Both the position numbers and the translations under genes were made by a program. A stretch of 64,000 bases of DNA from Bacteroidota bacterium (GTDB lineage Bacteria; Bacteroidota; Bacteroidia; Chitinophagales; JADJOU01). The stretch covers positions 43,472-107,471 of the forward strand of contig JADJOU010000008.1 of NCBI GenBank assembly GCA_016713645.1, read 5' to 3'. Each line of letters begins with the position of its first letter. Position 1 is the first letter of the stretch. Below, piece after piece: positions 5,715 through 53,513 of the stretch. Under the pieces are notes generated by a model. The model saw nothing but the letters and a program-made list of their open reading frames with translations. It had not been told where the DNA came from and made no database searches.

Positions 5715-6078
5715 CTCTTTCTCATTTGACCTTATATCCATCGTTTTTAAATCAAAACACATCCTCTTTAGAGCGCATCAAAGTCTATTTAAAGCAAATC
5801 ACTGATTCTATAAACCTTATCTAGGACTCTTTGACACAAATCCACATATCTTTGGGATTCAACACGCTATCGCTAAAACAAGTCACATTCTCTCCATGAT
5901 TCGACAAGAGTTCTTTGCGGCAGATGATTGGCTCTTTATGACAAGTTGTAAATTCTTTGAAACACAAATTGAACTCTTTGAAAGGTGCTTGCCTATTTCA
6001 ATGACAAAACACCTACTCTTTGGAGCGCAACATACACTGTCTTAGACAGAATTCCTATTCTCTCAAACAAAACACTAT
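5715..6078. repeat. Degenerate 21-bp periodic tandem array (about 15-17 units) with a conserved YTCTTTR core
   Basis: Cores start at 5764, 5827, 5848, 5911, 5932, 5953, 5974 and 6016. All spacings are exact multiples of 21. A second conserved ACA block sits at unit positions 10-12. Confidence 0.8.
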
Positions 6079-6398
6079 TTATATGAATGAAAAAGCCATA
6101 GACATAAACAAAAGAGAATGTGCGCTTCTTAAAAGTGAAGAGGGCGATAACCTTCAAAATAATGACAATCAAAAGCTAGTAATAGAAATCGCTATTGAGA
6201 ATATCAGCCTCTCCTCAACTATAATTGAGATACAGGATACAACTAAATGTGACTCTTTCTTCTTTTCACCCATTCAATTCAAAATTTAATGTCATCATTC
6301 AAATATTCCTTTCGTCTGAGAATCTCACCAATTCTTCTACCTTTACCATGCCCCGTAGGTAATCACGACATATCTATTTGTCTTAAATAAAAATAAAG

Positions 6399-7458
6399 AT
6401 GGAAAACACAACAGTAAAAGCATTCGGAACTCAGGCAGCTACAAAACCGCTCGAACCATTGACCATTCAACGAAGAGGCGTGGCAAACAGAGATGTAAAA
6501 ATCGAAATTGTATATTGCGACGTTTGCCACTCAGATTTGCACACTGCCCGCAATGACTGGGGTGGAACAATCTATCCCGCCGTTCCCGGTCATGAAATTG
6601 TCGGCAAAGTCACTCATATCGGAAATGCCATTACCAAATTTGCCGTGGGCGATATCGTTGGGGTGGGTTGCTTAGTTGATTCTTGCAGAACATGCGATAG
6701 TTGCAAAAAGGATCTAGAGCAATACTGCTTGAATGGTTTTACGGGAACATACAATGGCAAGGACAAACATCTCGGCGGACACACCTTCGGTGGATATTCA
6801 GAAACGGTGGTAGTAGACGAGGATTTTGTATTAAAAATCCCTACCAACCTGCCAATTGCAGCCACAGCTCCCCTACTCTGCGCTGGAATCACCACTTGGT
6901 CACCACTAAAACACTGGAATGTAAAAGCAGGCAGTAAAGTCGCCGTCGTCGGGCTCGGTGGATTGGGGCATATGGCCATCAAACTCGCCAAGGGCTTAGG
7001 AGCTTCCGTAACCTTATTCTCAAGGACAGTAGAAAAAACCAGCGATGCTTTGGCATTGGGCGCAGACCAAGTCATTATATCCACCGATGCCGATCAGATG
7101 AAAGCAGCTAAAGGGAAGTTTGATTTAATCATCGATACCATCCCCTCGATACATGATGTAAACCCCTACATCACGACACTGGGCATAAGCGGCACCTTGG
7201 TTTTGGTAGGCTATTTAGGCAGTCTCGACCCGATGCTCAATTCTGTTCCCCATGATTCTCGGCAGAAAATCTGTCGCAGGCTCTGTAATTGGAGGCATCG
7301 CAGAAACACAAGAAATGCTCGACTTCTGCGGTACACACAATATCGTCTCCGACATTGAAATGATTTCAATGAGTGATATTAATACTGCTTATGAACGAAT
7401 GCTGAAAAGCGATGTGAAATACCGATTTGTAATTGACATGGCTTCGCTTAAGAGTTAG
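6399..7458 (+). pseudogene. Zn-dependent NAD(P) alcohol dehydrogenase (CAD/YahK-like), frameshifted
   Basis: Motifs present: GHEIVGKV, the structural-zinc cysteines CRTCDSCKK, and GLGGLGH. The true C-terminus ([14 protein letters not shown]...YRFVIDM) is in ORF 7252-7458. There is an extra C in the run at 7248-7251. Confidence 0.85.
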
Positions 7459-7691
7459 TCTTTGGATTAGATTGGGTTTTTAATAAATGAAAGTTAGATG
7501 ATGACTTGGCATGTATTTTTAAATCCCACCACACATTTCTATACTAGATATTCCACCATCATCCATACAGGATTTGGGATTGATTTGCAAGACATAAAAA
7601 TGTATGATAAGCCACAAGTGATAGTCGGTAAAAGCTATATCATGTTGCTTTCCTCTTTTCCCCTATCTTCATCCCTCAATTTTTGTAATAA

Positions 7692-10555
7692 ATGAAAATA
7701 AATTTCTTTCTTGTTTTCTTATTAAGCGTTTGGTTTATAAATCAAGCAAGAGGTCAACAACCCGCCCATTTCATCCTCGGTGAAAATCAATTTAAGGGCG
7801 TGCAGATCTATGATATGATTCAAGACAATGAGGATTATTTCTACTTCGCGACCAACGAGGGAATCATCCACTACGACTTTATAAGCTTTACCAAACTAGA
7901 GACCAAAGAGGCGCGCAGCAATGCATTTTTCAACTTAGTAAAAAACAAAAAGGGCACCATATTCTTCAACAATCTAAACAACCAAATTTTTAAAATTGAG
8001 AACAAGACCTGTGAACTCGTCTTTACTTTGCCAGAGCGTTTCAGTTCGAATATAATCAACCTCACTTGCAATAATCTCGGTCAATTGATCATCGCCTGCA
8101 AAGGAATCCTCCTTATCTCAGAAGAAGGGAAGTTATTGAATGAATTAGAATCGCCCTATGTTTTCAACTCCAGCTATCAACTCAGTGACGGGAGTTGGAT
8201 GTTTCCGGTTGCGAATGATACGAGTCTATTATTGTATGACAATAAAATCTTCCATCGTGCCGAGCTGCTGCTAAATGGCGCAAAATCAAGCCGAGCCTTC
8301 GGTGTGCTGAACTTCTTTCGTTTCCTAGACAGCCTTTATGCTGTAGATTTATCCAACAATAAATTTTATGCCTTCGATGAACTTAGGTTGTCACTGCGCG
8401 AAATCAATGTCGGCAATTTTTTAAATTCCAGTACCAATGCGCGGGTCTATATCACCGGCGATCAAATCTGGTCGGCATCGTCCATCTCGGGCATCAATTT
8501 TAGCAATCATACCCTGCCACAAGAATTCTCAGTCTTATTTAAAGACTATTTTATCTCCGACGTCTATCGCGACCGCGAAGGGAATATCCTCATGGGCACT
8601 TTCGACAAAGGTGTTATTGTAATTCCCGACTTAAGTGTGCCTGATGTCATTGACCCTTTTCACAGCGACCCGATGATTAGCCTATTTGCCGCAGGTAAAA
8701 ATGAAATCTATATGGGTTCAAATAGTGGCTTTTTTAAAATGTATCAAAACTATCAAATTCAAACAATCAGCAGCACCCATAAAAAGCCGATTGAGGGAGT
8801 CTATGGTGACGTAGAGAGTGATTTTATCATTTATGATGATGAAAAAATAAAGTGCTATAATCGCAAGACCAAAGAGATATACAGCTTCTCCAACGCTTCG
8901 CTGAAAGACGTTTGTTTTATCAATCATGAGGCGATGTATATTGGAACCAATATTGGGGTATACAAGGCGAAACTGGGAACTCATGCGCGTTTTTCCATAG
9001 AACACATCCCTGATTTTAAGACAAGGGTTTATTCCCTCGCTTATGATAAAACAAATGAAATTTTATACATCTCCAGTGCGAGTGGATTACTAAAATTCCA
9101 TCAAAACAAAGTCGAAAAAATTCTTTATCAAAACCATGATATCTATTCAGAAAAAATTTGTGTTGATGGGGAAACCCTCTATGTTTTATCCCGTCAACAC
9201 GGCATATTGACGGTGAATAGCCAAGTTCAAATTTCTCCTTTTGTATTTAAAACACTTAGTCGTGAAGAACAAATCAAGCATATCCAATTTTACAATCACT
9301 CTATCATTACTAGCACCAATACGGGTTTGTATCAATTTGACTTGAAAGGGAATATCGTACGACAATTTCATACGGCTTTTGGATTTGCGACAAAGAAAAT
9401 CTATGAATACAGTATAGCTGAAAACACGCTGTGGGTGAGCCATTCAGGTGGTGTGCAAGAGATTGGGCTCAATACCTACATTCAAAAAAGGAAGCAATTG
9501 CCATTAGATTGAAACAAGTCTTTGTAAATGATTCAAATGTAACAATAGCATCTGTCAATCACTTTAATTCTACACAGCGCAAGATTGCCTTTGTGGTCGT
9601 CTCTCCTAGTTTGCGGAATTTGGAAAATATAAAATACCACTATATCCTTCAAGGCTATGATAATCATTGGTATTCACAGAGCAGCAATTCCATCCAATTC
9701 AACGCCTTATCGCCTGGCAGCTATACCCTCTTTGTAAAAGCTGAGTCAATGGGAAATTTTAGCAATGTAATTCAATACTCTTTTAGAATAATCAAGCCTT
9801 TTTATCTGCAGATTTGGTTTCTAATCAGTGCATTGTTTATTTTTTTAGCAATCGTATATTTTGTGTATAGATGGCAGGTGGAAAAGCAGAAATTGAAATT
9901 GAAATTGTTGAACGAATTGAACGTATCCAAACTCACGGCGATTCAATCTCAGATGAATCCCCACTTTATATTTAACTCCCTCAATTCTATTCAAGATTTT
10001 GTCTTACAACAAGACGCGATAAAAGCCTATGATGCCATTGGTAAATTTGCCACCCTCATTCGAAAAATTATGTTGCATTCGGAAAAGGAATTTATTGATA
10101 TTGAAGAAGAACTCGCCATCTTGAATGTCTATTTGGAATTGGAAATGATGCGCATCAAAAAGGATTTTCACTATTCCATAAATAGCCACGACTTGGCCGA
10201 TATTGAAATTCCGCCCATGCTTATCCAACCCTTCATTGAGAACAGCATTAAACATGGCTTGTTGCATAAACAAGGCGAAAAAATATTGACTGTAGATATG
10301 ACTATTTCCGGGGATGTTTTTATCTGTGAAATTCAAGACAATGGCATCGGTCGGCGGCAGTCAGGCATTATTAAATCCAGACAGAACAAAGAGCATACAT
10401 CTTTTGCAGGAAGTGCGTTAGAAAAGAGAATGCAAATACTTAAGAAACATTTTGGTGGGAATTTTAGTGTAGAAATCTTAGATTTACACGATAAGGAGGG
10501 AAATGCAACAGGCACCAAAGTCATTTTGAAAGCCCCCTTTAAATATATATATTAG
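7692..10555 (+). pseudogene. Sensor histidine kinase with periplasmic propeller repeats, a Y_Y_Y domain, one TM helix, and LytS-type His_kinase + HATPase domains; frameshifted
   Basis: ORFs 7692-9512 and 9431-10555 join as ...LNTYIQKKEAIAIRLK... if the A6 run at 9484-9489 is read as A7. Supporting motifs: YHYILQGYDNHWY (Y_Y_Y), QMNPHFIFNSLNSIQ (His_kinase), and a C-terminal ATPase. Confidence 0.85.
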
Positions 10556-10558
10556 CAA

Positions 10559-11305
10559 ATGGAAAAGATTAAAGCACTTATTGTAGATGATGAGGAAAGT
10601 GCGAGAAACATTTTATTCAAACTTTTGCAGACTTATCGAAATGATATTGACATTATTGGTCAGTGCGATAATGTGGAACAAGCCGTTTTATTTATCAAAA
10701 ACAACAAGCCCGATCTTGTGTTCTTAGATATTGAAATGCCCAACTACTCTGGCTTGGAGCTTATTCAATTCTTCGATGAAATACCCTTCGACATTATTTT
10801 CATCACGGCTTATCATCAATTCGCCATCAAAGCATTTGAAATTTCTGCATTCGATTATTTGTTAAAGCCCATTGAAATAGCGCGGCTCGACAGCGCCATA
10901 AAAAAATACATCGTCAAAACGCATCAGCAATTAGAAGCGATCAACTACAAAATCTTAAAAGAGAATCTAAGCCAAAACTGTATTTCTAAATTGATTGTAA
11001 GTCAGCAGGGCGGGCAGAAAGCCATATTATTGTCGGACATCATCGCCCTACAAGCAAACGAGGCATATACGACGATCTATGATGCAAATGGGCAGCAATA
11101 CACCATGAGTAAAAATTTAAAGTATTTTGAACAGCAATTCTCCGACAACAAAGATTTCCTTCGTGTACACAAATCTTGGTTAGTCAATGGACAGCACATT
11201 CGGAAATATTCCAGTACTGATTTTTCCATTTATTTGAGTCTAAATATAGAAGCGAAGCTTTCGAAATACAAAAAAGCCGAGTTTGACGCTTGGTATAAAA
11301 GCTAA
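10559..11305 (+). CDS. LytTR-family response regulator (REC + LytTR DNA-binding domain)
   Basis: 248-aa ORF with a receiver domain (ALIVDDE...DLVFLDIEMP) and a C-terminal LytTR pattern (FLRVHKSWLVN). It starts 3 nt after the kinase gene. Confidence 0.9.
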   Translation: MEKIKALIVDDEESARNILFKLLQTYRNDIDIIGQCDNVEQAVLFIKNNKPDLVFLDIEMPNYSGLELIQFFDEIPFDIIFITAYHQFAIKAFEISAFDYLLKPIEIARLDSAIKKYIVKTHQQLEAINYKILKENLSQNCISKLIVSQQGGQKAILLSDIIALQANEAYTTIYDANGQQYTMSKNLKYFEQQFSDNKDFLRVHKSWLVNGQHIRKYSSTDFSIYLSLNIEAKLSKYKKAEFDAWYKS

Positions 11306-11323
11306 TCCCGCTTTCGTTTTTCG

Positions 11324-11356
11324 TCCATTCCTCAAAAAATCAATCCATTCCTCAAA
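11324..11356 (+). promoter_or_regulatory. Putative LytTR operator: two perfect 13-bp direct repeats TCCATTCCTCAAA
   Basis: Copies at 11324-11336 and 11344-11356 (20-bp period). They lie 18 nt after the regulator stop codon and 7 nt upstream of the -33 element. Confidence 0.6.
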
Positions 11357-11363
11357 CATCTGT

Positions 11364-11393
11364 TTTGAGCCCTTTAATAGCACAATAAATTTG
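11364..11393 (+). promoter_or_regulatory. Putative Bacteroidota-type promoter (TTTG at 11364-11367, TAAATTTG at 11386-11393)
   Basis: TTTG, an 18-nt spacer, then TAnnTTTG. The -7 box ends 26 nt upstream of the ATG at 11420. Confidence 0.5.
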
Positions 11394-11419
11394 CGCTATA
11401 AACAATTTACATTATCATC

Positions 11420-12751
11420 ATGAAACAGATTAAAAAATTAAAACGCATCAGTGTTATTGCGCTAATCAGCTTATTTACAACCAATCTATTTGCGCAAAAA
11501 ATTCAATTCGAAACTATTGAAATTAATTATGGAAACGTCGTAGGTGGAGTAAAAAAGAAAAATGAATTCTTAGTATTCACAGGGCCTACACCATTAACAA
11601 TAAATAGCGGAATCTCTCTTAACAAAGACAATGGTGACTATAAAGGCAAATTAACTTTAATTGGGAATGACAGAAAGGGCAAAAGACTTAGTATTATGAC
11701 GGATATAACTTATAGTGCAACTAGATATAGAAACACGAGCAAGGTAGATATCAAGCCCGAGCAAGACAACGAGATTTATATCAACGAAATAATGATTTCT
11801 GTAACGGACTCAAAAGGCAATACGACATCTGCGACTGAGCCCATCTTTAATGCACGGACCAATACGAGTTTTGCTGTTTTGCTGAATGGCATTTCAAGTG
11901 ATAAATTTTGCGATGAACAAAAACTGAATGCCGTATTTATGAATCAATCCGTTGGTTTCGGAATATTCGCTGTTGTATTGGGATTAAACAATACAAAGAC
12001 GGGTCCCTCGCCAATCGAAAAAGCGATGACTGCAGGAAGAGGAAATGGAATCGGGAGATATGTTTGGACAACTAGTCATGATCAGAGAACAACGAGAATT
12101 GTTGCGCCTACAACAGACAATGCAGGAAACTGGACATTTGAAGACAAAATGCCCATAAAAGATGAAAAAAACCCACCAGTTCTTGAGAGTTTTGAAATGA
12201 TTTATATAACTGCTTGCAATGATACTTACACGTATAAAAGTGTTTTCATGCAAAAGCTAGCTGATATTAAACCATGGGATTATAAAGTAAGAATGGACAA
12301 TGTAATAGCTACAGATAATCCCGTATTCCAAGGTGGAGGTAATGTTATGACGAATGTCTTGGGTTTAACCTTCCCTAGTTCTTCTGTTACAATAACAGGA
12401 GGAAGTATAGCAATCGCTGACCATTCAAAATTCAGTATTGGCTTGAGCAATACCAATGTTGGAAATGGCGGTATCAACTACAAAAAAATCAATGATGTCT
12501 TTATAAACATTCAATTCAAATCAGAAAGCGATAGAGTATTCTATCACTGGGGAAGCGTCGTGTCTACCTCAAACCCAAGAATTGCAATTAACACCGACTC
12601 GCTAAAAATCAAAGATTACACCATTGTAAATGCTGAAATTCGCGTTGTCAACGACAAAAAGATACCCTCGTATATGAGAGCAATGGAAAGTTTGCAACTT
12701 CATTGGATGGAAAACAACCTTTTTATTGTTGGAGAAATCAGAGAAAATTAA
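11420..12751 (+). CDS. Secreted hypothetical protein (signal peptide; no family recognised)
   Basis: 443-aa ORF. The N-terminus (MKQIKKLKRISVIALISLFTTNLFAQ) is a typical Bacteroidota signal peptide. Confidence 0.7.
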   Translation: MKQIKKLKRISVIALISLFTTNLFAQKIQFETIEINYGNVVGGVKKKNEFLVFTGPTPLTINSGISLNKDNGDYKGKLTLIGNDRKGKRLSIMTDITYSATRYRNTSKVDIKPEQDNEIYINEIMISVTDSKGNTTSATEPIFNARTNTSFAVLLNGISSDKFCDEQKLNAVFMNQSVGFGIFAVVLGLNNTKTGPSPIEKAMTAGRGNGIGRYVWTTSHDQRTTRIVAPTTDNAGNWTFEDKMPIKDEKNPPVLESFEMIYITACNDTYTYKSVFMQKLADIKPWDYKVRMDNVIATDNPVFQGGGNVMTNVLGLTFPSSSVTITGGSIAIADHSKFSIGLSNTNVGNGGINYKKINDVFINIQFKSESDRVFYHWGSVVSTSNPRIAINTDSLKIKDYTIVNAEIRVVNDKKIPSYMRAMESLQLHWMENNLFIVGEIREN

Positions 12752-12803
12752 ATTGATCAAAGAGAGCTATGCCTTTGGAAAATCGAGCTTAATAGTGACA
12801 GAT

Positions 12804-13160
12804 TTGAAAACATTATTGGCATTGACCTTCTTCTTTTCTTTGAAAAAAGGAAGTAGCATTCCAGCATCGATGGTCGCTCAAGTAGAGATTAATACTTGCA
12901 AAACTGTTCCCGAATTTATAGCAGTAAAGCTAAAATATGATCCTATTTCGGGTTTATGGACAGGTGGTCAATCTATCTTACAAACAGCAGAATGCCCCGT
13001 GACAGTAAAAGGATTTAAAATCAATATCGTCAACACTTGTGGCATTACTTATTCTGCAAAGAATGGCTATTTTGACGAAACAAAAAACACCTGGATTTGT
13101 GAAGATGAATGCTTAAAAGTAAACACAGATACTTTTTGCGGGAGTACAGATCATTTCTAA
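12804..13160 (+). CDS. Small secreted six-cysteine protein (hypothetical)
   Basis: The ORF track gives 12726-13160. An in-frame TTG at 12804 yields MKTLLALTFFFSL... (a signal peptide) and a mature part of about 95 aa with 6 Cys. The start codon is uncertain. Confidence 0.5.
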   Translation: MKTLLALTFFFSLKKGSSIPASMVAQVEINTCKTVPEFIAVKLKYDPISGLWTGGQSILQTAECPVTVKGFKINIVNTCGITYSAKNGYFDETKNTWICEDECLKVNTDTFCGSTDHF

Positions 13161-13183
13161 TTTGGAAGAATAGAATTTTTACA

Positions 13184-13214
13184 AAACGCACTCTGATTGG
13201 GGTGCGTTTTTTTT
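13184..13214 (+). terminator. Rho-independent terminator
   Basis: Stem AAACGCAC (13184-13191) pairs with GTGCGTTT (13202-13209), followed by a T run to 13214. It lies 24 nt after the stop at 13160. Confidence 0.75.
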
Positions 13215-13290
13215 ATAATCCCCCTTTCTATCCATTCTTCCCAATACAATTTGTGCAATTCTACGTCTATTTCATTCCCCACCGTAAACA

Positions 13291-13331
13291 AAAATGCCCA
13301 AAGAAAAATTGTATTTCTTGGGCATTTTTTA
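13291..13331. terminator. Hairpin terminator, probably bidirectional (serves the minus-strand ABC gene)
   Basis: ATGCCCAA (13294-13301) pairs with TTGGGCAT (13318-13325), with an extended stem. T runs follow on both strands. Confidence 0.6.
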
Positions 13332-13380
13332 TTGCAAATTGTTTTGATCCAACAAACTTGGCTTCGGCCATTGTTAATCA

Positions 13381-15174
13381 TTAAGCCATCCTTGCGGCCT
13401 TATTCCGCTTGATGTCTTCCAAACTTCCCTTTGGAATAGCTTGAATCAATTTCTGTGTATACTCATTCGATGGATTATTGTAAATATCATCGGCATAGCC
13501 CATTTCTTCCACCTTTCCCTTGTTCATCACCACCATTCTATCGCTCATAAACTTCACCACCGATAAATCATGTGAGATGAAAATATAGGTAAACTTAAAC
13601 TCTTCGCGAAGGTTAATTAATAGATTCAATACCTGTGCCTGCACAGAAACATCTAATGCTGAAACAGACTCGTCGCAAATGATGAATTTTGGATTCAATG
13701 CCAATGCACGTGCAATACATACCCGCTGTCTCTGTCCACCAGAAAACTCATGTGGATATCGCGCAAATTGCTCTGGCTTCATATTCACTTTCTCTAACAA
13801 CTCGATTGTCTTTTCCTTGCGCTCTTTGTCGCTGCCATAGATTCCATGCACCATCATCGGCTCCATAATCGCATTGCCAATTGTCATCCTCGGATTGAGC
13901 GAAGAATAGGGATCCTGGAAGATAATCTGCATCTCTTTTCTCAAGTCCAACATATCTGCTTGATTCAAATCCAATACATTTCTTCCCTTATAAATAATCT
14001 CTCCTGCCGTAGCTGGCGCCAATCTCAATATCGTTCTTCCAAGCGTTGTCTTTCCGCATCCAGACTCACCAACCAATCCCATCGTTTCACCTTCATATAC
14101 ATCAAAAGTCACATCATCCACCGCTTTGACATAATCCTTTACATTGCCGAAAAAATCGCGCTTAGAAGGAAAATAGGTCTTTACCCCTTTCAATTGCAAT
14201 ATCTTCTCTCTTGTCATCAATTCAGCCCTGCGCTTCAAGGTATCTTCCTTGGTCACAATCACATTCTTAATCGCTTCCTCTACCGAACTCTGCAATTCGA
14301 TAATTTGTCCATTCTCCTCTTTCATGAAATCTGTCACGGTAGGCAATACCCTCAAACGCAAATCCAATGGCGGTCGGCACGCCAACAAGCCCTTGGTATA
14401 TGGATGCTTAGGACTCTCAAAGATAGAGACCACATCGCCTTGCTCGACGATTCTTCCCTTATACATCACCAATACTCTATCGGCAATTTCTGCAATTACA
14501 CCCAAATCATGTGTGATGAAAATAACGGCTGAATCAATTTCCTTCTTCAAATCATTCATCAATTGCAATATCGTCTTCTGCACAGTTACATCTAATGCCG
14601 TTGTCGGTTCATCTGCAATCAATACGCCCGGTTTGCAACTCATCGCCATAGCGATCATCACCCTTTGTTTTTGTCCTCCAGACAATTGATGCGGATAGGC
14701 ATTCAATACGCGTTTTGGATCCGGTAGTTTTACTTTTTCAAATAATTCCAAGGTCAATTTCTCCGCCTCTTGCTTGGTCACCTTCTGATGCAATAAAATG
14801 GTCTCCATCACCTGATTTCCGCATGTGAATACTGGATTCAAAGAGGTCATCGGCTCTTGAAATATCATCGCCAATTCATTCCCTCTGAAGGATTGCATTT
14901 CTTTTTCTGAGATTTTTACTAAATCTATTTGCTTGCCATCCTTGGTGTGATAGATAATCTGTCCCGAGGCAATTCTGCCCGGCGGATTTGGAATCAAACG
15001 CATAGCAGACAATGAAGTAACTGATTTACCAGAACCTGATTCTCCCACAATTCCTATTGTCTCTCCTCGATATAAATCAAAGCTGACATCATTCACCGCT
15101 TTGACAATCCCATCATCTGTCTTAAATTCTGTTACAAGGTTTTTTACTTCTAACAATAACTTTTTTTCCATCAT
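13381..15174 (-). CDS. ABC transporter ATP-binding protein with duplicated ATPase domains (Dpp/Opp/YejF-like)
   Basis: 597-aa ORF with two Walker A motifs (GESGSGKS, GESGCGKT), two LSGGQ signatures (QLSGGQKQR, EFSGGQRQR) and two Walker B motifs. Confidence 0.92.
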   Translation of the reverse strand: MMEKKLLLEVKNLVTEFKTDDGIVKAVNDVSFDLYRGETIGIVGESGSGKSVTSLSAMRLIPNPPGRIASGQIIYHTKDGKQIDLVKISEKEMQSFRGNELAMIFQEPMTSLNPVFTCGNQVMETILLHQKVTKQEAEKLTLELFEKVKLPDPKRVLNAYPHQLSGGQKQRVMIAMAMSCKPGVLIADEPTTALDVTVQKTILQLMNDLKKEIDSAVIFITHDLGVIAEIADRVLVMYKGRIVEQGDVVSIFESPKHPYTKGLLACRPPLDLRLRVLPTVTDFMKEENGQIIELQSSVEEAIKNVIVTKEDTLKRRAELMTREKILQLKGVKTYFPSKRDFFGNVKDYVKAVDDVTFDVYEGETMGLVGESGCGKTTLGRTILRLAPATAGEIIYKGRNVLDLNQADMLDLRKEMQIIFQDPYSSLNPRMTIGNAIMEPMMVHGIYGSDKERKEKTIELLEKVNMKPEQFARYPHEFSGGQRQRVCIARALALNPKFIICDESVSALDVSVQAQVLNLLINLREEFKFTYIFISHDLSVVKFMSDRMVVMNKGKVEEMGYADDIYNNPSNEYTQKLIQAIPKGSLEDIKRNKAARMA

Positions 15175-15421
15175 TGAAAATTTACGAATGCCAAACGTAC
15201 ATAAAAATTTTGAATCTAATTAGACTAAACGGGATTTCTCATAGCATTCCCCTTAAAACCAGCTGTTTGTCACCTTTTTTGCCTCTTAGATGCCCATCCG
15301 CTTTACGACGGATATTTAGCTCTTTTGCTCAACCCAATCATTCGCGCAGACTTCGAAGGATTGATTTCGACGATGCTAAATTTCTCAAACTTATTTGAAC
15401 ATCCTTTAAAATTAAATACAT

Positions 15422-17569
15422 TTGGACTCCTTTTTAAAACGGCAGATTCATTATAACCTAAACCCATTATTTATCAATATCATCATCTCATATCCCTATT
15501 ATTTTATCCTCTTCTGCCTATTCTTAGGTTTCGTTTTTGCATGGATATTATATAGAGACGAGACAAAATTCAACATTCAAGAGAAAAAGCATTGGCTCTA
15601 TGTATTGAGGACTTTGCGTTTTATGGCGGGCTCTTTACTGGCTTTCTTGCTCCTTTCTCCTTTTGTCAAAATTAAAAAAAACATCGTAGAAAACCCCACA
15701 GTCGTTATCGCGATAGACAATTCCTCATCGATTCTCCAAGATAAAAACTTTAATGCTCAAGCTTTTCGTGCGAATTTAGAATCGCTGACAAAAGCCCTTA
15801 GCGATAAATGTCAAGTGGAAGTTTTCTCTTTCGGCTCTGCGCTTCAAAAAGATAGCTTGTATCACTTTTCCGATAAAGAGACAGACATCTCCAGCGCCAT
15901 AGAAGAAGTCGACAATACCTATTTCAACCAAAACCTCACCGCATTGGTCATCGCATCAGATGGTTTATTCAATAAGGGCATTCACCCTTTTTATTCTAAG
16001 ACAAGCAGCTCTTTTCCCATTTATACCATTGCGCTCGGCGATAGCAATATTAAAAAAGACATCAGTATAATCGATGTGCACCACAATAAATTCGCCTATC
16101 TCAACGATAAGACCACTGTTGAATTGGACATTGAAGCCAATAATTATGCCGGTGCTAAATCAGAACTTTCTCTCTACCATATTTTGCCTAATGGCAATGC
16201 CAAAATTATTGGTCAGCCTATCCAAATAAACTCTAATCGATTCAACCAAACAGCGACGCTATACATTGACTGCAAAACGGTTGGTCTCGGCCATTATCGA
16301 GCTGTAATAGGAGCTCTGCCTGGCGAGTCTGTCACACAAAACAATACAAGAGATTTCTTTATCGAAGTGCTCGACGGAAGGAAAAAAATACTCATCGTTG
16401 GTTCTTCCCCGCACCCTGACATGACGGCGCTCAAACAGTCCCTTGAACAATCCAAAAACTATCAAGTAGATATTGATTTTACCAATGCGCGCTTGGCAAA
16501 TTTAAATGAATACCAATTGGTGGTCATGCATCAAATGCCTTCCAACACCAATGCTGCTGGCGATTGGAATAAGGCAATTCTCGAGAAAAAAATCCCTTGT
16601 CTCTATATTATCACATCCCATTCCCAATTGGCCCTATTCAATAGCCTTCAATCCAATTTGGAAATTACGAAACAAGCAGATGCTCAGCAAGATTTATTTC
16701 CATCCATCCCGAATAGCTTCGATTTATTTTCCTTAACGGAAGAATCCAAAGCGCTGATGAAACGCGTTCCCCCTTTGGATTTTACCTATTCTTCGATACG
16801 CCCCAAATCTGCACTAAATATCCTCTTGAAACAAAAAATTGGTGCCATAGAAACAGAATTTCCACTCATCGCTTTTGGCGAGAGCAATGGTGTTAAAAAT
16901 GGCTATATCATCGGCGAAGGCATATGGAGATGGCGTTTATATGAATTTCAACAGAATCAATCGCACACATACTTTGACGAATACTTCACCAAAATCTTCA
17001 ATTATCTAGCTGTAAAAAAGGATAATCGCCCTTTCCGAGTCAATTTAGCCAAAAATATTTATCGCGAAAATGAAGCCGTCAAATTAGAAGCCCAATTATA
17101 CAATCCCTCTTTTGAATTGGTCAATACACCTGATGCGAGTATAGAAGTTAAAAATCGCGAGGGCAAGACGTATAAATTTAATTTTGCTAAAAAAGACAAA
17201 ATCTATTCGCTCGACATTGGATATCTCCCCGCTGGAGACTACGATTATAAAGCGGTTTGCAATTACAATGGAACAAATTATATAGCCGATGGAGCCTTTA
17301 TCATCAGCCCACTGCAATTGGAATTATCCAAAATTACTGCTGATCACCAATTGTTAAATTCACTCGCAGCTAAGCGCAACGGTTCAATGTATTATCCCAA
17401 CCAAATCGATCTCATGGCAAAAGAGATGTTGGAAAAACTTCCCTTTAAAAAACTGCTCTACGAATCTTCTGAAACCAATCCAATCAACAATTTGTGGTGG
17501 ATACTCGCAATTGTTATTTTGCTATTGGCCGCCGAGTGGTTCATTAGAAAGTATTTGGGCGACTACTAA
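15422..17569 (+). CDS. Membrane-anchored vWA-like domain protein (hypothetical)
   Basis: 715-aa ORF with N-terminal TM helices, a MIDAS-like DNSSS motif (VVIAIDNSSS) and a C-terminal TM helix (WWILAIVILLLAAEWF). The TTG start is uncertain. Confidence 0.6.
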   Translation: MDSFLKRQIHYNLNPLFINIIISYPYYFILFCLFLGFVFAWILYRDETKFNIQEKKHWLYVLRTLRFMAGSLLAFLLLSPFVKIKKNIVENPTVVIAIDNSSSILQDKNFNAQAFRANLESLTKALSDKCQVEVFSFGSALQKDSLYHFSDKETDISSAIEEVDNTYFNQNLTALVIASDGLFNKGIHPFYSKTSSSFPIYTIALGDSNIKKDISIIDVHHNKFAYLNDKTTVELDIEANNYAGAKSELSLYHILPNGNAKIIGQPIQINSNRFNQTATLYIDCKTVGLGHYRAVIGALPGESVTQNNTRDFFIEVLDGRKKILIVGSSPHPDMTALKQSLEQSKNYQVDIDFTNARLANLNEYQLVVMHQMPSNTNAAGDWNKAILEKKIPCLYIITSHSQLALFNSLQSNLEITKQADAQQDLFPSIPNSFDLFSLTEESKALMKRVPPLDFTYSSIRPKSALNILLKQKIGAIETEFPLIAFGESNGVKNGYIIGEGIWRWRLYEFQQNQSHTYFDEYFTKIFNYLAVKKDNRPFRVNLAKNIYRENEAVKLEAQLYNPSFELVNTPDASIEVKNREGKTYKFNFAKKDKIYSLDIGYLPAGDYDYKAVCNYNGTNYIADGAFIISPLQLELSKITADHQLLNSLAAKRNGSMYYPNQIDLMAKEMLEKLPFKKLLYESSETNPINNLWWILAIVILLLAAEWFIRKYLGDY

Positions 17570-17683
17570 TTAAGGCTATTGCAAACCCTCTTTCAAAGTT
17601 CCACTTAGCACAAAATGATTTTTTAAATGACTTATTTCAAAAGATACTTATTTTTATCCTTTTATAAATAGCGAACAACCCGA

Positions 17684-19116
17684 ATGTACAAATTCTTATT
17701 GATTCTTCTTATCCCTATTGGTGCATTTTCACAAAAAGCTTTGTCGATAAAAAACTGCATTCAAATCGCCTTAGAGAAAAACCTTCAAATCAAACAATCC
17801 CTGATTCAAGAATCTATTGCGCGAAACAATTCTAAACAGTCGCAAAACAATCTATTGCCCTCCGTGTCCGTGGATATGAGCGGTGGATTGAGTTTGGGAA
17901 ACTCCCTCAACCCGACAACCTATGAAGTGCAATTCCGAAATGCCTATTCCTCTACTTTAGGCGTTGGGGCGCAAATGACCATATTCTCTGGATTACAACA
18001 AATCAATAATATCGAACGCACAAAGGCCCTTCTCTCAAGTGCCTCCATGGACAAGGAAACTTTTATCAACAACCTCGCACTAACTGTTTCCAACCTCTAT
18101 TTGCAAATTTTACTCGCCAAAGAATTATTGACCACATCCATCAATCAATCCAAATTGACCATTGAAGAAATCAAGCGTACTTCTGAATTAATTGAAGCCG
18201 GGGTATTGCAAAAGGGAATTCAATTGATCTCGAGGCTCAAAGTGCAAGAGACGAGCTCAATATTGTCAAAGCACAGAACAGTTATGATTTGCTCGTTTTC
18301 CAAATGAAACAGTTGCTCTTGATGCCTTTGAGAGCAGACATTCAATTCGAAACTTCCTACAAGTTGAGAGAAGCCCTCTACAACTTAGATGGTATTGATA
18401 CCATTACTTCTCGTGCAATCGCTAGAATGCCTCAAGTCAAAAGCGATGAATTCAAATTGCGCGCCGCACAGAGACAAGTCTATATGTCTAAAGGGGCCTT
18501 TTCACCGACATTGAGCTTGTCCTATTATTCGGGGTCTAATTTCATCAACCTCGCTCAAGATTACCGAGACTCGACTGTCATCGTGGATCCGAGCCCTATT
18601 GGAAATGTCTTTGTCCCACAATTGAACTCCTTTGTCACCATTAATTCTTTACAGAGTTCATATACAGGAAAAGTGCCTGATGGTGAAAGGCCTTATTGGA
18701 TGCAGATTTCCGACAATCTATCACACCGTGTGACGCTTTCGATGAGTATTCCCATCTTCTCCAGATTTCAGCGCAAAACCAATTTGTCAAATTCTTTTCT
18801 GCAGTTGAAAAACCAGGAATTGCAACTCGAGCAGACAAAAAACAAAATTCGCGAGGAGATTTATACCGCTTATATCAATTATAAAAATGCACAGAAAGCA
18901 TATTATGCCAACGTGACCAACGCCAAGGCCTTCGACAATTCACTCAATTTTGCTAGAGAAAAATTCAATGCCGGTGTAATCAACTCGCTTGATTTCAACA
19001 CCACAGTCACCAATGACCAAAATGCAAAATCTGAATTGTTAAGATCGAAGTATGAATATATTTTTAGAAAAATTGTCTTAGACTTTTACGTCTATGGTGT
19101 GGTAAATATTGAATAA
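17684..19116 (+). pseudogene. TolC-family outer membrane efflux protein, frameshifted
   Basis: ORFs 17684-18307 and 18289-19116. The second frame is open further upstream and reads KGNSIDLEAQSARDELNIVKAQNSYDLLVFQMKQLL. A single-base indel lies near 18200-18215. Confidence 0.85.
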
Positions 19117-19118
19117 AA

Positions 19119-20405
19119 ATGAATAAAAACTATTTGTATATAGGCATTGGTGTAGCCATTTTATTAGCGCTTGCGGTATTGGGCAAAAAGCGCGGCTGGT
19201 GGGGTGATGTGAAGGGAATTGAAGTTGCTGTTGAAGCCGCAGCAAAGAGAGATATTTTTGAAAAAGTAAATGCTCAAGGGACTTTATTCTCTGCGACAGA
19301 GATAAAGATTAGCTCTGAAGTTTCAGGTGAAATCATTGGACTGCATACCAAAGAAGGCGCATGGGTAAATAAAGGCGATTTAATCCTCGAAATCAATCCC
19401 ACCATATATAAAACTTTGATTGACCAAGCGCAAGCCCAAGTCAATCAAATGAAAGCCAACCTCGCAACGGTAAAGGCGCGAAACAAACAAGCCATCGCCA
19501 GTTATGCCATCGCTGAAAAAGACTATGCCCGCAAAGAAGGTCTTTATAAAAAAGATATCATCGCCATTCAAGAATTCAATCAATCGGAATCACAATATTT
19601 AGCATCAAAAGGAGAGAAAGAGGCCTCTGAGGAAAATGTGCATGCCGCCGAATTTCAACTTGAAAATGCACAAGCAGGTTTTAAACAAGCGCAAGAGAAT
19701 CTAAGCCGAACAAAAATCTATGCGCCTATGAGTGGCACGGTCTCCAAACAAAGTGTTGAGTTAGGCGAGCGCGTTGTCGGAACAGCCCAGATGTCTGGAA
19801 CAGAATTAATCCGGATTTCCGATTTAAACAATATGGAAGTGCGCGTAGATGTCTCTGAAAATGATATTGTCAAGACCAATATCGGCGACTCCGCGATTAT
19901 TGACATTGAAAGTTATCCAGATATAAAATTTAAAGGCGTCGTTTCTCAAAAGGCCTATTCATCGAATCAAAACTCCATGATCACAGACAAAGTGACCAAT
20001 TTTATTGTGAGAATAAAGTTAGACAAAACAGCCATTTCCTCCAATTCAACGTTGGGCTCTGAACAATTTCCCTTTAGGCCGGGCATGACTGCTTCTGCAG
20101 ATATCATTACCAATAAGGCCATCGGCGTGCTTGCTGTGCCGATTCAATGCGTCACCACGCGCGAAAAAGAAAAAAACAAGGACGAGACGGATGAAGTTGT
20201 CTTCTTCGCCGATAAAAACAAAGCAGTTAAAAGAATCGTTAAAACGGGGATACAAGACGACAACTACATAGAAATTAAATCGGGCGTAAAGCTTGGCGAT
20301 AAGGTGATTAAAGCGCCTTTCAGGGTAATTGCCAAAACCATAAAAGCGGACGATGTTATTGTTGAAGTAGACGAGGAAAAATTGAATAATAAGAAAGAGA
20401 AGTAA
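19119..20405 (+). CDS. Efflux transporter periplasmic adaptor subunit (HlyD/MFP family)
   Basis: 428-aa ORF with an N-terminal TM helix, a lipoyl-like/coiled-coil pattern (KIYAPMSGTV) and a beta-barrel domain. It starts 2 nt after the TolC gene. Confidence 0.85.
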   Translation: MNKNYLYIGIGVAILLALAVLGKKRGWWGDVKGIEVAVEAAAKRDIFEKVNAQGTLFSATEIKISSEVSGEIIGLHTKEGAWVNKGDLILEINPTIYKTLIDQAQAQVNQMKANLATVKARNKQAIASYAIAEKDYARKEGLYKKDIIAIQEFNQSESQYLASKGEKEASEENVHAAEFQLENAQAGFKQAQENLSRTKIYAPMSGTVSKQSVELGERVVGTAQMSGTELIRISDLNNMEVRVDVSENDIVKTNIGDSAIIDIESYPDIKFKGVVSQKAYSSNQNSMITDKVTNFIVRIKLDKTAISSNSTLGSEQFPFRPGMTASADIITNKAIGVLAVPIQCVTTREKEKNKDETDEVVFFADKNKAVKRIVKTGIQDDNYIEIKSGVKLGDKVIKAPFRVIAKTIKADDVIVEVDEEKLNNKKEK

Positions 20406-34485: not shown

Positions 34486-36059
34486 ATGATACATTTAGAA
34501 ATTGACGAAACCTTCATTCATGCTTTGCCAGCAGACCCCAACCTAAATAACGAGCGCAGGCAAGTGAGGCAAGCATGTTATTCTTTCGTCAAACCGACAA
34601 TTCCCACGAGTCCTCATATCATTCATGTTGCGGAAGAAGTGACAGACCTGATTGGGTTGAAAGCAGAAGAGTTAAATACCGAATCGTTTTTAAATGTCTT
34701 TTCCGGAAAGGAGATATTCCCCCATACACATCCATTTGCCATGGCTTATGCAGGCCATCAATTTGGTCATTGGGCGGGACAATTGGGTGATGGTAGAGCC
34801 ATTAATTTGACAGAAGTGCTGTGCAATAAACAGCGGTTTATGCTCCAGCTGAAAGGAGCTGGTCCAACACCCTATTCTCGTTCAGGCGACGGTTATGCGG
34901 TATTGCGATCATCTATCCGCGAACATCTCTGCAGTGAGGCCATGCATTATTTGGGAGTTCAGACGACGAGGTCGCTATCCCTTATCGGCACAGAAGATAT
35001 AGTGGCGAGGGATATGCTCTATAATGGCAATATCCAAATGGAAAAAGGGGCTATTGTCTGCAGGGTTGCACCGAGTTTTATACGCTTCGGAAACTTTGAA
35101 TTGCTAGCCGCCAATAAAGACATTGTCAATCTAAAAAAGCTCGCTGACTATACCATTGAGCTATTTTTCCCTGAAATAAATGAATCAGGAGCAGATAAAT
35201 ATATCCATTTTTTAAGCGCAGTTTCAGAAAAAACACGTATGATGATACTCGATTGGCAGCGGGTTGGATTCGTCCATGGTGTAATGAATACCGACAATAT
35301 GTCTATTCACAGCGTAACGATTGACTATGGACCATATGGTTGGTTGGAGGGATATGATGAGGGCTGGACACCCAATACTACGGACCGCGAACACAAGCGA
35401 TATCGATTCGGCAACCAAGCCAATATCGCCCTATGGAATCTAATGCAATTGGCAAATGCCCTCTATCCATTGATTGAAAAAGTGGAACCGCTGGAAGAGA
35501 TATTGCATGGATTTGGTGAACAATATCGAAACGATTACGCGGATATGATGCGGGAAAATTGGGATTATCGCAGCTAGAGGAAGGGGATGATGAATTGATA
35601 AAAAACCTCATCGACAGTCTGCAATTAGCGGAAACGGACATGACTATTTTCTTCAGAAACCTATCAAATATCCATCAAAACGCCCAGGTTTCTTGGGAGG
35701 AAATCATGGATAAATTGGGCAATGCATTTTATAAACAGGGTGAATTAACGGAAACGGTCAAAGATAAATGGGCGGTTTGGATGGGCAATTATGTTCTGCG
35801 ATTGCAAAAAGAAGCGCGGCCAGATGAAGAGAGAGTGCAAGCGATGAATCGAGTCAACCCAAAATATGTCTTGAGAAACTATATGGCGCAAATGGTCATC
35901 GAGGAAGCAGAAAAAGGAAATTACCAATTATTGAATGAAGTATTCGAATTATTGAAGCGGCCATACGAGGAACAAGTAGAAAATGAAAAATGGTTTGCAA
36001 AAAGACCAGAATGGGCGAGGAATAAAATTGGTTGTTCCGCACTTTCATGTAGTTCATAG
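34486..36059 (+). pseudogene. selO: Protein adenylyltransferase SelO (YdiU/UPF0061), frameshifted
   Basis: ORFs 34486-35577 and 35559-36059 join as ...MMREKLGLSQLEEGDDEL... if the A4 run at 35555-35558 is read as A5. Pseudokinase motifs present: GDGRA, QLKGAG, HGVMNTDNMS. Confidence 0.88.
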
Positions 36060-52134: not shown

Positions 52135-53513
52135 ATGAGAAAACGATTGCTCTTTTTGATAATGACAATGTCTATTATCCTAGTGAATGCTCAAATTAAT
52201 CCAGCCATAAAAGCGTGGTTGCAAAACACGACCATTAAGGGGAAACATTATGTGAAAAACAATTCGACAGCAATTCCCGACACTTCAACAGCAAATGTTC
52301 AGTTGGTAAGATATTCAGCGGATTGGGTATATATAAATACAAATGGTGTACCAGCATATACAACAGGGCCATTTTTAGATAATAACCCGAGTTTGGCAAG
52401 TTCGCAGAATGCCATTTTTAAAGTGTCTTTAAAACCTCAGAAAAATACAGGAGCGCCCATTCCAACAACGGGAGGGAATATTGGATTGTTTATTAATGGG
52501 GTCGCGCTCTTTGATTACCGCGATGGTGTTTCATGGAACAATGCACAATCTAAACTCTGCGGAGGTCCGATTATGTCACTCCTCCAGGAGGTGATGGAAA
52601 ATGGAATCGCGATGCAGTTGTCGGCGAGCGATTGGGTTTTGATTGTTCCAAAGGACACCCCGCTATGGGCAATTATCACCATCATCAAAACCCCAGTGCA
52701 TTTGATATGGATTTGAATGTCACGTCTACAGTATGTTCGCTCTATGATGCAGATGGATTGTATAAAATTGACTCGACTAAGCACTCCCCGCTTATTGGGT
52801 TTGCTTACGATGGTTTTCCAATTTATGGCGCTTATGCATATAAGGATACCAATGGCATGGGTGCGATTGCGCGGATGAAATCTAGCTATGTCTTGAGAAA
52901 TATTACGGTGAGAACACATTGGGCAGATGGCACTGATGTATTGGATGGTCCTCCTGTAGATGCTACTTATCCTTTGGGATATTTTAGAGAGGATTATGAA
53001 TATGTCCCAACAACAAAGACAGATTATTTGGATGCGAGCAACGGACGTTTTTGTAAGACACCAGAATATCCAAACGGCATTTATTGTTATTTCGCGACTG
53101 TGGATGAAAAGTGGAATTCTGCTTATCCCTATGTCGTCGGACCGAATTTCTATGGGGTGAAAACAACAACTAAACCAACCAGTATCACTGAAACAGTAAC
53201 AATTTATGCTGATTCTGTAGCGACTAAGGACACAACAAAATCGTCGGTATTGGTAAATAAGGGGACATCGTTTGCAAATGTTTTCGCAAGTCGCGATGGA
53301 GAATTTGTCGTTATTCAAATCAACGATTTGGTGAAACAAACGATTTATGTAGAGATGTATAGTATGGATGGCAAATTGATTCAAAAGACATCAGTTTTGC
53401 AGGGAAGCACTATTGCTTATATGGATACAAGAACGCTCTACCAAGGGCTGTATATTGTCAAAATCACCAATGGCACGGAGCATGAAGAGCGAAAGGTGTT
53501 TGTGGAGAAATAG
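52135..53513 (+). pseudogene. YHYH-domain protein with a T9SS type A C-terminal domain, frameshifted
   Basis: ORFs 52135-52716 and 52632-53513. The second frame is open back to DYVTPPGGDGKWNRDAVVGERLGFDCSKGHPAMGNYHHHQNP. The indel is near 52566-52570. The C-terminus (IYVEMYSMDGKLI...GLYIVKI) is CTD-like. Confidence 0.75.

Follow-up and report, generated by a model that had tools for sequence, protein, structure and literature searches.

There is a block of genes in the stretch of DNA analysed here (64,000 nucleotides, or 64 kb, of contig JADJOU010000008.1 from a Bacteroidota bacterium of the Chitinophagales, hereafter the window) that is probably a self-contained signal-response cassette, in which a conserved regulatory platform drives one exchangeable exported cargo protein of 580 amino acids and in which three frameshifts are errors of the assembly. 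The block has four functional parts on one strand, namely a sensor histidine kinase gene, a LytTR response regulator gene, an operator with its promoter and a single cargo gene, and it is closed by a terminator. A first-pass annotation of the window had described five elements. Its kinase, regulator, repeat pair, promoter and terminator are placed where it had put them, but its pair of cargo genes is one gene. The unidirectional order that it proposed, from kinase through LytTR regulator, operator and promoter to an exported cargo and a terminator, is backed by conserved synteny and operator geometry. Our evidence consists of the observed gene structure, synteny, operator and promoter geometry and evolutionary rates. 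All features are on the plus strand unless indicated otherwise.

An operator with conserved geometry

There are 114 bp of intergenic DNA between the regulator and cargo genes, and this region contains the 13-mer TCCATTCCTCAAA twice as an exact direct repeat. The distal copy is at positions 11324-11336 and the proximal copy at 11344-11356, or about -74 to -62 and -54 to -42, respectively, relative to the predicted start of transcription. The proximal copy begins 20 bp downstream of where the distal one begins, and 42 bp upstream of the -7 box. These are the only two copies of the exact 13-mer in the window. The repeats are followed by a core promoter of the Bacteroidota sigma-A type (11364-11393), composed of a -33-like TTTG at 11364-11367 and the -7 box TAAATTTG at 11386-11393. 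Because a TAnnTTTG box sits at -12 to -5 (PMC9723704), transcription is predicted to start near position 11398. The two exact repeats, the TTTG and the -7 box bear out the direct-repeat pair and promoter that had been marked earlier at 11324-11393.

The same arrangement is found in related loci, which are numbered here with the prefix L. The operator consensus across loci is two copies of TCCATTCCT[A/C]AAA, with three copies in L004 and with one or both copies degenerate in L005, L013 and L001. The repeats are spaced exactly 20 bp from start to start throughout, and the start of the proximal repeat is located 41-43 bp (mostly 42) upstream of the TAnnTTTG box. This geometry is conserved in 9-10 loci, which include L002, L004, L005, L008, L009, L010, L013 and L014 besides the window, and the -7 box is found at the conserved distance in all loci that are linked to a two-component system. 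The remaining spacer DNA has diverged among the loci that have the conserved operator. The geometry persists down to a regulator identity of 51%, where the cargo is a different protein. The L003 contig begins just upstream of the cargo gene and retains the operator. The motif is lacking in L006 and L007, which have cargo homologues without an adjacent two-component system. The 9-nucleotide core TCCATTCCT and its 11-nucleotide spacer match the general layout of a LytTR site, for which 9-11-nucleotide repeats and 11-13-nucleotide spacers are described (PMC4847170).

A scan of the JGI metagenome collection for the exact operator gave three matches, two of which are the same cassette. The third carries the exact double-repeat pattern at positions 2803-2835 of L011, and we take it to be a chance match because it is on an unrelated high-GC contig without convincing open reading frames (ORFs).

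There is no sign of autoregulation in the window, because only 3 nucleotides separate the kinase and regulator genes and no copy of the operator was found upstream of the kinase. Extra operator-like repeats are present between the kinase and regulator genes in L004 (1124-1136) and L014 (5928-5965), and these suggest autoregulation of the regulator in those relatives.

The end of the transcription unit is marked by an intrinsic terminator (13183-13218) located 23 nucleotides past the cargo stop codon, with a hairpin of 12 pairs (5 GC) and a T-run (13183-13210). The next gene after the terminator encodes an ABC ATPase and is convergent with the block (13381-15174, minus strand). Between them, at 13296-13330, an A-run and a T-run flank an imperfect hairpin rich in GC, and this element, which the terminator scan missed, probably acts as a bidirectional terminator for the ABC ATPase gene.

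A conserved platform with an exchangeable output

Kinase, regulator and cargo genes are adjacent in at least eight independent loci with unrelated flanks. A synteny check found the block again in L001, L002, L004, L005, L008, L010 and L015-L019, and in L013 with a domain-shuffled relative of the cargo. In L001, L002, L004, L005, L008 (Chitinophagaceae) and L010, the genes for an orthologous kinase and its LytTR regulator are followed immediately by a cargo homologue with 36-48% identity, and the flanking genes differ every time. More distant cargo homologues stand alone among housekeeping genes in L006 and L007.

In some loci the cargo has changed. In L013, whose regulator is 63% identical, the adjacent gene encodes a protein of 466 amino acids with the N-terminal domain of the cargo family and the C-terminal module, and without the central core. 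The complete genome of Paracrocinitomix mangrovi (L014) has the same kinase, regulator (51% identical) and operator, the last consisting of TCCATTCCTGAAA and TCTATTCCTGAAA at a spacing of 20 bp and at a distance of 42 bp to a TATTCTTG box. There, the operator precedes two unrelated signal-peptide proteins of 457 and 402 amino acids that have no family match. Both of these L014-type cargo genes are also found in L020, a metagenome-assembled genome of the Crocinitomicaceae (5987-8682), where they are inverted relative to the two-component system and have degenerate repeats 20 bp apart upstream of them. Because L013, L014 and L020 keep the operator with a changed cargo, the recognition motif would be a property of the regulator clade, and it is the output gene that changes. 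In this view the platform of sensor, regulator and operator is conserved, and the cargo is its fast-evolving, exchangeable output.

Several neighbouring genes deserve mention. A protein with SprB/HYR repeats is encoded after the cargo in L002 (10088-13085), L003 (2378-5376) and L008 (8710-10605), and in L002 and L003 a KilA-N protein is encoded between the two. The SprB/HYR neighbour may indicate a link to gliding or cell-surface functions. Within L013, a gene located 1.4 kb upstream of the kinase gene (1-1584) encodes a fusion of Reg_prop/Y_Y_Y with a guanylate/adenylate cyclase domain, and two small ORFs starting with MNTKNT are found downstream of the cargo (8291-8782), one of which has a fragment of a cargo core motif (DNPIFQP).

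Rapid evolution and allele exchange of the cargo

The cargo diverges much more than the proteins encoded next to it. Between the window and L002, identity is 66% for the kinase and 75% for the regulator but 36% for the cargo, and across loci the respective ranges are 44-66%, 48-77% and 36-44%.

A comparison with the close relative L015 resolves where this divergence is concentrated. Nucleotide identity is about 94% from the 3′ end of the kinase gene to the operator and about 91% over positions 11933-19319, which include the 3′ part of the cargo gene. In the regulator and ABC ATPase genes that flank the cargo, the nonsynonymous divergence (dN) is 0.006 and the synonymous divergence (dS) is about 0.4, giving a dN/dS of 0.015. 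Cargo residues 173-580 show 82-83% nucleotide identity, with a dN of 0.118 and a dS of 0.83. For residues 1-172, amino-acid identity is 30%, dN is 0.75 and dS is saturated.

The N-terminal part appears to have been swapped as a segment. Positions 11368-11932, which cover the core promoter, the 5′ untranslated region and the first ~170 codons (the N-terminal beta-sandwich), have no nucleotide homology to near-identical strains. Blastn homology breaks exactly at 11367 and 11933 in comparisons with L015, L016, L017 and L018, and the left breakpoint falls immediately after the operator. Amino-acid identity is 30% in the swapped segment compared with 99-100% in the flanking genes. There are two N-terminal allele types across the cargo family, and the near-identical strains carry a divergent type. 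Two alternative types of C-terminal tail are also present in the family. A swap pattern of this kind is the signature of recombination that has moved old alleles, or else of selection that is diversifying or balancing. Such extreme allelic divergence of the cargo beside conserved regulators suggests selection by an external partner.

These data bear on the possibility that the cargo is not an output effector but a periplasmic accessory of the sensor, serving as a co-receptor or feedback modulator as CpxP does for CpxA. An accessory would be expected to look in part like this cargo, which is the single adjacent target of the system, is tightly co-inherited with the kinase, and has a type I signal without an outer-membrane or type IX secretion system (T9SS) sorting signal, which predicts a location in the periplasm. 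However, the cargo is 36% identical between the window and L002 where the sensor domain of the kinase is 62% identical, and near-identical regulators are accompanied by different N-terminal cargo alleles. The same platform also carries unrelated cargo in L014, and cargo homologues exist without the system. We consider it unlikely that the cargo is a sensor accessory.

One cargo gene interrupted by frameshifts

The cargo gene spans positions 11420-13160 and encodes 580 amino acids after two bases are restored. Without them it is split into ORFs at 11420-12751 (443 amino acids) and 12726-13160, and the first-pass annotation had read these as two cargo proteins. A search with the 443-amino-acid ORF gave 17 relatives among 5.8 billion clusters, nearly all of which are 565-760 amino acids long. 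The homologous proteins P0002 (596 amino acids, 87% identity), P0003 and P0004 (583 amino acids) run past the stop codon of the window into the sequence of 118 amino acids that follows, and homologues of 578-610 amino acids span both ORFs. Between the 3′ ORF and the C-termini of P0002 and P0004, identity is 88-90%. Orthologues at the same genomic position, with an alcohol dehydrogenase (ADH) gene upstream and an ABC ATPase gene downstream as in the window, are single ORFs of 580-583 amino acids in the Logan assemblies L015-L017 and in an NCBI metagenome-assembled genome (L018/L019). Because intact orthologues in close relatives read through both parts, the two ORFs are best described as the 5′ and 3′ parts of one gene.

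Translation in three frames reveals where the reading frame is lost. The first frame is left after ...VVNDKK at an A5 run (12656-60), a middle frame encodes the conserved sequence DTLVYESNGKFATSLDGK, and a second shift at GG-AAAA (12710-14) enters the frame of the small ORF. The first lesion (12655-12660) lacks one A, such that A5 is present where relatives have A6, and the second (12709-12714) lacks one base, such that GG-AAAA is present where relatives have GGCAAAA. The restored protein ends with CGSTDHF. The small secreted protein of 118 amino acids described previously corresponds to the C-terminal beta-sandwich domain and Cys-rich tail of the 580-amino-acid protein. Its six cysteines are present in the last 118 codons, and its presumed signal peptide is a beta-strand region inside the C-terminal domain, as judged from the alignment and from the AlphaFold2 (AF2) model.

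A third lesion affects the kinase gene, where a single-base deletion at or next to the A6 run at 9484-9489 (lesion 9484-9490) splits the ORF. The restored kinase has 954 amino acids, which is the length of the L002 orthologue, and the frameshift is the sole indel relative to L018 across the coding sequences of kinase and regulator. With the swapped segment 11368-11932 set aside, where the alignment is poor, an indel whose length is not divisible by three occurs at only three positions from the kinase start to the terminator, namely 9490, 12655 and 12710.

These three frameshifts are most likely homopolymer assembly errors, because unrelated genes across the window are also split at short homopolymers. 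The genes for ADH (a zinc alcohol dehydrogenase, 6399-7458, located upstream of the kinase), SelO (34486-36059) and a YHYH protein with a Por_Secre_tail domain (52135-53513) are each divided into two overlapping ORFs, all at short homopolymers, and in the case of SelO and YHYH a single Pfam model is matched in successive parts by the two halves. The suspicion of the first-pass annotation that the kinase frameshift may be a sequencing artefact agrees with this pattern. Such lesions are typical of long-read data, and we infer a long-read metagenome-assembled source. One consequence is that reading this assembly at the level of ORFs is systematically unreliable owing to homopolymer indels, and the public annotation of the cargo (443 amino acids, P0001) is truncated.

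A real origin of the frameshifts would imply that the cassette is decaying into pseudogenes, or that it is phase-variable through slippage at A-tracts. The clustering of three lesions within 4 kb of one functional unit could be read in this way, and surface-protein genes are classic targets of phase variation. However, the same type of lesion occurs in ADH, SelO and YHYH, which are unrelated, housekeeping-type genes, and apart from the three single-base lesions the kinase and cargo genes are free of stop codons or other damage. The tracts are just 4-6 nucleotides long, and tracts of this length are too short for efficient slippage. We reject phase variation on account of the short tracts and the lesions in housekeeping genes, and we regard real frameshifts in general as decidedly unlikely. 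That there are two separate, co-transcribed exported proteins, of 443 amino acids and of 118 amino acids with six cysteines, is highly improbable even though both ORFs exist in the raw sequence and NCBI annotates the product of the first, because every homologue is one continuous protein over both parts, the junction crosses a third frame that encodes the conserved motif DTxVYExNGKxAxSLDGK, and the small ORF's supposed start and signal peptide fall within the C-terminal sandwich in the alignment.

The sensor kinase and its regulator

The sensor histidine kinase gene (7692-10555, present as ORFs 7692-9512 and 9431-10555) encodes, after restoration of one base, a protein with two transmembrane segments and a large periplasmic domain. 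An N-terminal signal or transmembrane segment is followed by a periplasmic region of ~710 amino acids with Reg_prop and Y_Y_Y domains, a transmembrane helix, a PF06580 His_kinase domain and an HATPase_c domain. The Pfam scores are 29.6 bits for Reg_prop (one repeat), 42.1 bits for Y_Y_Y and 75.2 bits for His_kinase, and HATPase_c scores 21.2 bits, which is below the curated cut-off of 26.4 bits. The histidine motif NPHF is present in the reconstructed protein. HisKA, REC, AraC and 5TMR_LYT domains are not found in the kinase by Pfam, and a search against the sequences of solved structures found no relative of the sensor. Full-length orthologues of 954-990 amino acids are found in L001, L002, L008, L013 and L018, with 44-66% identity.

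The REC-LytTR response regulator gene (10559-11305) starts 3 nucleotides past the kinase stop codon and encodes 248 amino acids. Its Pfam scores are 78 bits for Response_reg and 57.7 bits for LytTR, and the acidic pocket D10/D11 and the phospho-acceptor D57 can be read from the sequence. The best NCBIfam models are BtsR (E 1e-42, 145.8 bits against a cutoff of 246) and LytR (124.5 bits against 375), both of which fall below their cutoffs. Orthologues are 48-99% identical. A search with the regulator gave ~35 clusters at 56% identity or more and a larger set at ~50-55% that includes Crocinitomicaceae. Kinases with Reg_prop/Y_Y_Y and PF06580 domains recur together with LytTR regulators in Bacteroidota metagenome assemblies. 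A literature search for LytTR and Y_Y_Y in the Bacteroidetes gave no characterised example.

A rare family of modular secreted proteins

The cargo begins with a signal peptide, MKQIKKLKRISVIALISLFTTNLFAQ (11420-11497), that by eye has a type I appearance and no lipobox cysteine, and this feature is conserved as MK...AQ in all members of the family. An AF2 model built from a 16-sequence alignment depicts a chain of beta-sandwich domains, with an overall predicted local distance difference test score (pLDDT) of 65 and values of 80-88 in the conserved core. The C-terminal module (12750-13160) consists of an immunoglobulin (Ig)-like beta-sandwich of ~100 amino acids with conserved cysteines and a Cys-rich tail with the terminal CGSTDHF. 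When the C-terminal part is modelled alone, the overall pLDDT is 68, with values of ~80 in the sandwich and below 50 in the tail. The cysteines suggest that the cargo is probably disulfide-bonded.

The family is small. An exhaustive profile search gave 80 proteins among 1.84 billion representatives, ~17 of which span essentially the whole profile, and with a narrower alignment the family was found in only 2 of 185,579 species genomes. The C-terminal module is also found alone, as tandem copies and in proteins of other architecture. P0001, the annotated 443-amino-acid product, covers profile positions 1-418 (E 2e-164), and the restored cargo of the window is a collinear full-length match that carries all of the family motifs (WDYKVKM, RVFYHWGSxVSTSNP and DTIVYE). 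Five members of 736-761 amino acids (P0006, P0011, P0013, P0014 and P0016) have an insertion of ~170 amino acids after the N-terminal domain (alignment columns ~200-385) that includes a Cys-rich stretch with weak EGF-like matches.

There is no existing name for this family, in agreement with the first-pass annotation, which could not place the cargo: profile and fold searches gave no Pfam, NCBIfam, PDB-sequence or specific fold match. With Pfam, the matches of 16 family members, BNR_3 and EGF_2 among them, all stayed below threshold and are regarded as noise, NCBIfam gave no match for family members, and a profile of the 16-sequence alignment had 0 matches to PDB sequences even at E 10. The Foldseek matches were all unspecific, either to generic chains of Ig, FN3 or macroglobulin domains or to accessory domains of the CBM21-like and glycosidase kinds, and the C-terminal module has no specific PDB match. 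The cargo also has no match in PADLOC or PHROGs, and no toxin, peptidase, nuclease, defence or phage domain was found in it with Pfam, NCBIfam, PADLOC and PHROGs. To judge from these profiles, the cargo is a member of a rare, unnamed and unannotated family of modular secreted proteins.

The C-terminal module was considered as a novel T9SS sorting domain. No Pfam or NCBIfam match to a type A (Por_Secre_tail) or type B (CHU_C) sorting domain was found in the 16 family members, and hhalign comparison of the cargo with the type A and type B carriers encoded in the window gave probabilities below 2%. We rejected this candidate, as the module also occurs alone behind a signal peptide (P0065) and in internal tandem copies (P0036), and is unlike the genome's own sorting domains.

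Proposed mechanism and role of the cargo

The operator most likely switches on the single adjacent cargo gene. In the proposed sequence of events, the periplasmic beta-propeller/Y_Y_Y sensor of the kinase would detect a periplasmic ligand, and the kinase would then transfer a phosphate to D57 of its REC-LytTR partner. In this state the regulator may bind as a tandem pair to the two TCCATTCCT(C/A)AAA direct repeats, whose centres are near -68 and -48, at a spacing of 20 bp, and which closely precede the TTTG/TAnnTTTG promoter. Binding would activate one adjacent gene, with a transcript that would end at the strong terminator, and the output would be a Sec-exported chain of beta-sandwich domains 580 amino acids in length.

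Our best guess for the function of the cargo, weakly held because the models are moderate and the fold matches generic, is that it may be an inducible protein for ligand binding or adhesion, located in the envelope or the extracellular space, and not an enzyme or toxin. A sensor accessory, as considered above, and an antagonistic effector are both less likely. The latter possibility, in which the two-component system induces a bacteriocin-like protein or polymorphic toxin as in the LytTR bacteriocin loci of Firmicutes, follows from the suggestion of the first-pass annotation that the block is a secretion or antagonism module. LytTR regulators often control bacteriocins and toxins, and a hypervariable cargo with two types of C-terminal tail recalls polymorphic toxins. 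However, toxin, peptidase and nuclease domains and PADLOC matches are lacking in the cargo, as noted, no gene resembling an immunity gene separates the cargo from the terminator, and there is no exporter or pheromone gene in the block. Moreover, variability peaks in the N-terminal domain rather than at a C-terminal toxin tip, and the predicted fold is a string of beta-sandwiches. Together with the missing recognisable T9SS sorting domain, these observations do not favour the module proposed earlier, and an antagonistic role for the cargo is quite improbable.

Several points weigh against the cassette as we describe it, or against parts of it. Binding and activation by the regulator, the signal, and the localisation and function of the cargo are steps that we infer. 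The Reg_prop call depends on one significant repeat only. The cargo homologues in L006 and L007 occur without the system, and so the cargo is not strictly dependent on the two-component system. The call of frameshift artefacts is made from assembled sequences, which leaves a small probability that this strain has real frameshifts. Both structural models are moderate, and the fold matches are generic, with template modelling (TM) scores of no more than 0.2 at full length and 0.3-0.4 for the C-terminal domain. Finally, a type I signal peptide without a T9SS sorting domain or lipobox leaves export beyond the periplasm unexplained.

Relation to known regulatory systems

The closest characterised analogues are the E. 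coli systems BtsS/BtsR, with its target yjiY/btsT, and YpdA/YpdB, with its target yhjX, and a single-target circuit of the LytS/LytTR type is best supported for the block. Each of these E. coli regulators controls one target gene (PMC5552118, PMC4847170). The features in common are a kinase core of PF06580 and HATPase_c (the latter sub-threshold here), a REC-LytTR partner, a single target and, close before the promoter, an operator in which two direct repeats are separated by roughly two turns of the helix. The sensor differs, being a periplasmic Reg_prop/Y_Y_Y region of ~710 amino acids here and a 5TM-LytS/GAF membrane module in E. coli. The target is an adjacent gene for a secreted beta-sandwich protein here, whereas it is a distant transporter gene there, and the operator sequences are unrelated. 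Orthology to BtsS/BtsR or LytS/LytR was rejected, as there is no 5TM-LytS sensor and the regulator is below the equivalog cutoffs.

The hybrid two-component systems (HTCS) of Bacteroides, such as BT4663, are from the same phylum and have the same periplasmic Reg_prop and Y_Y_Y domain types. These systems sense glycan fragments. Unlike an HTCS, in which HisKA, HATPase, REC and AraC domains are fused in one polypeptide, the block encodes two separate proteins with PF06580 and LytTR domains. Identity with an HTCS was rejected on the basis of the separate genes and the lack of HisKA, REC or AraC domains in the kinase. There is also no SusC/SusD polysaccharide-utilisation locus adjacent to the block.

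The parallel that had been drawn with peptide and bacteriocin loci of Firmicutes is weaker than the likeness to BtsSR and YpdAB. Agr, Com and Pln loci do share a LytTR regulator and tandem direct repeats at the promoter of an adjacent exported product. Unlike them, the block comprises three genes with no pheromone, processing or export gene and no polytopic HPK10-type sensor, and it lacks any sign of autoregulation in the window. A peptide quorum-sensing locus of the Agr/Com/Pln type was rejected because the block lacks a pheromone, an exporter and a polytopic kinase.

Significance

What is new here is an unannotated and unusually fast-evolving protein family placed on a known kind of regulatory circuit. 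The locus provides a concrete and testable model for its clade, with a 13-nucleotide operator of fixed geometry and a single adjacent target, and a cultured relative that has the platform, Paracrocinitomix mangrovi, is available.

A broader proposal, which we offer tentatively and regard as doubtful in its full extent, is that a Bacteroidota LytTR clade reaching from Chitinophagales to Crocinitomicaceae serves as a platform with an exchangeable hypervariable output. Perhaps the operator is the left recombination junction, ancient N-terminal alleles are kept, and the product is an inducible polymorphic recognition protein. If this is true, the possible roles would include kin or partner recognition, adhesion to prey or particles, or service as a phage decoy, and the polymorphic recognition cargo would represent a new functional class of LytTR output as well as a new protein family.

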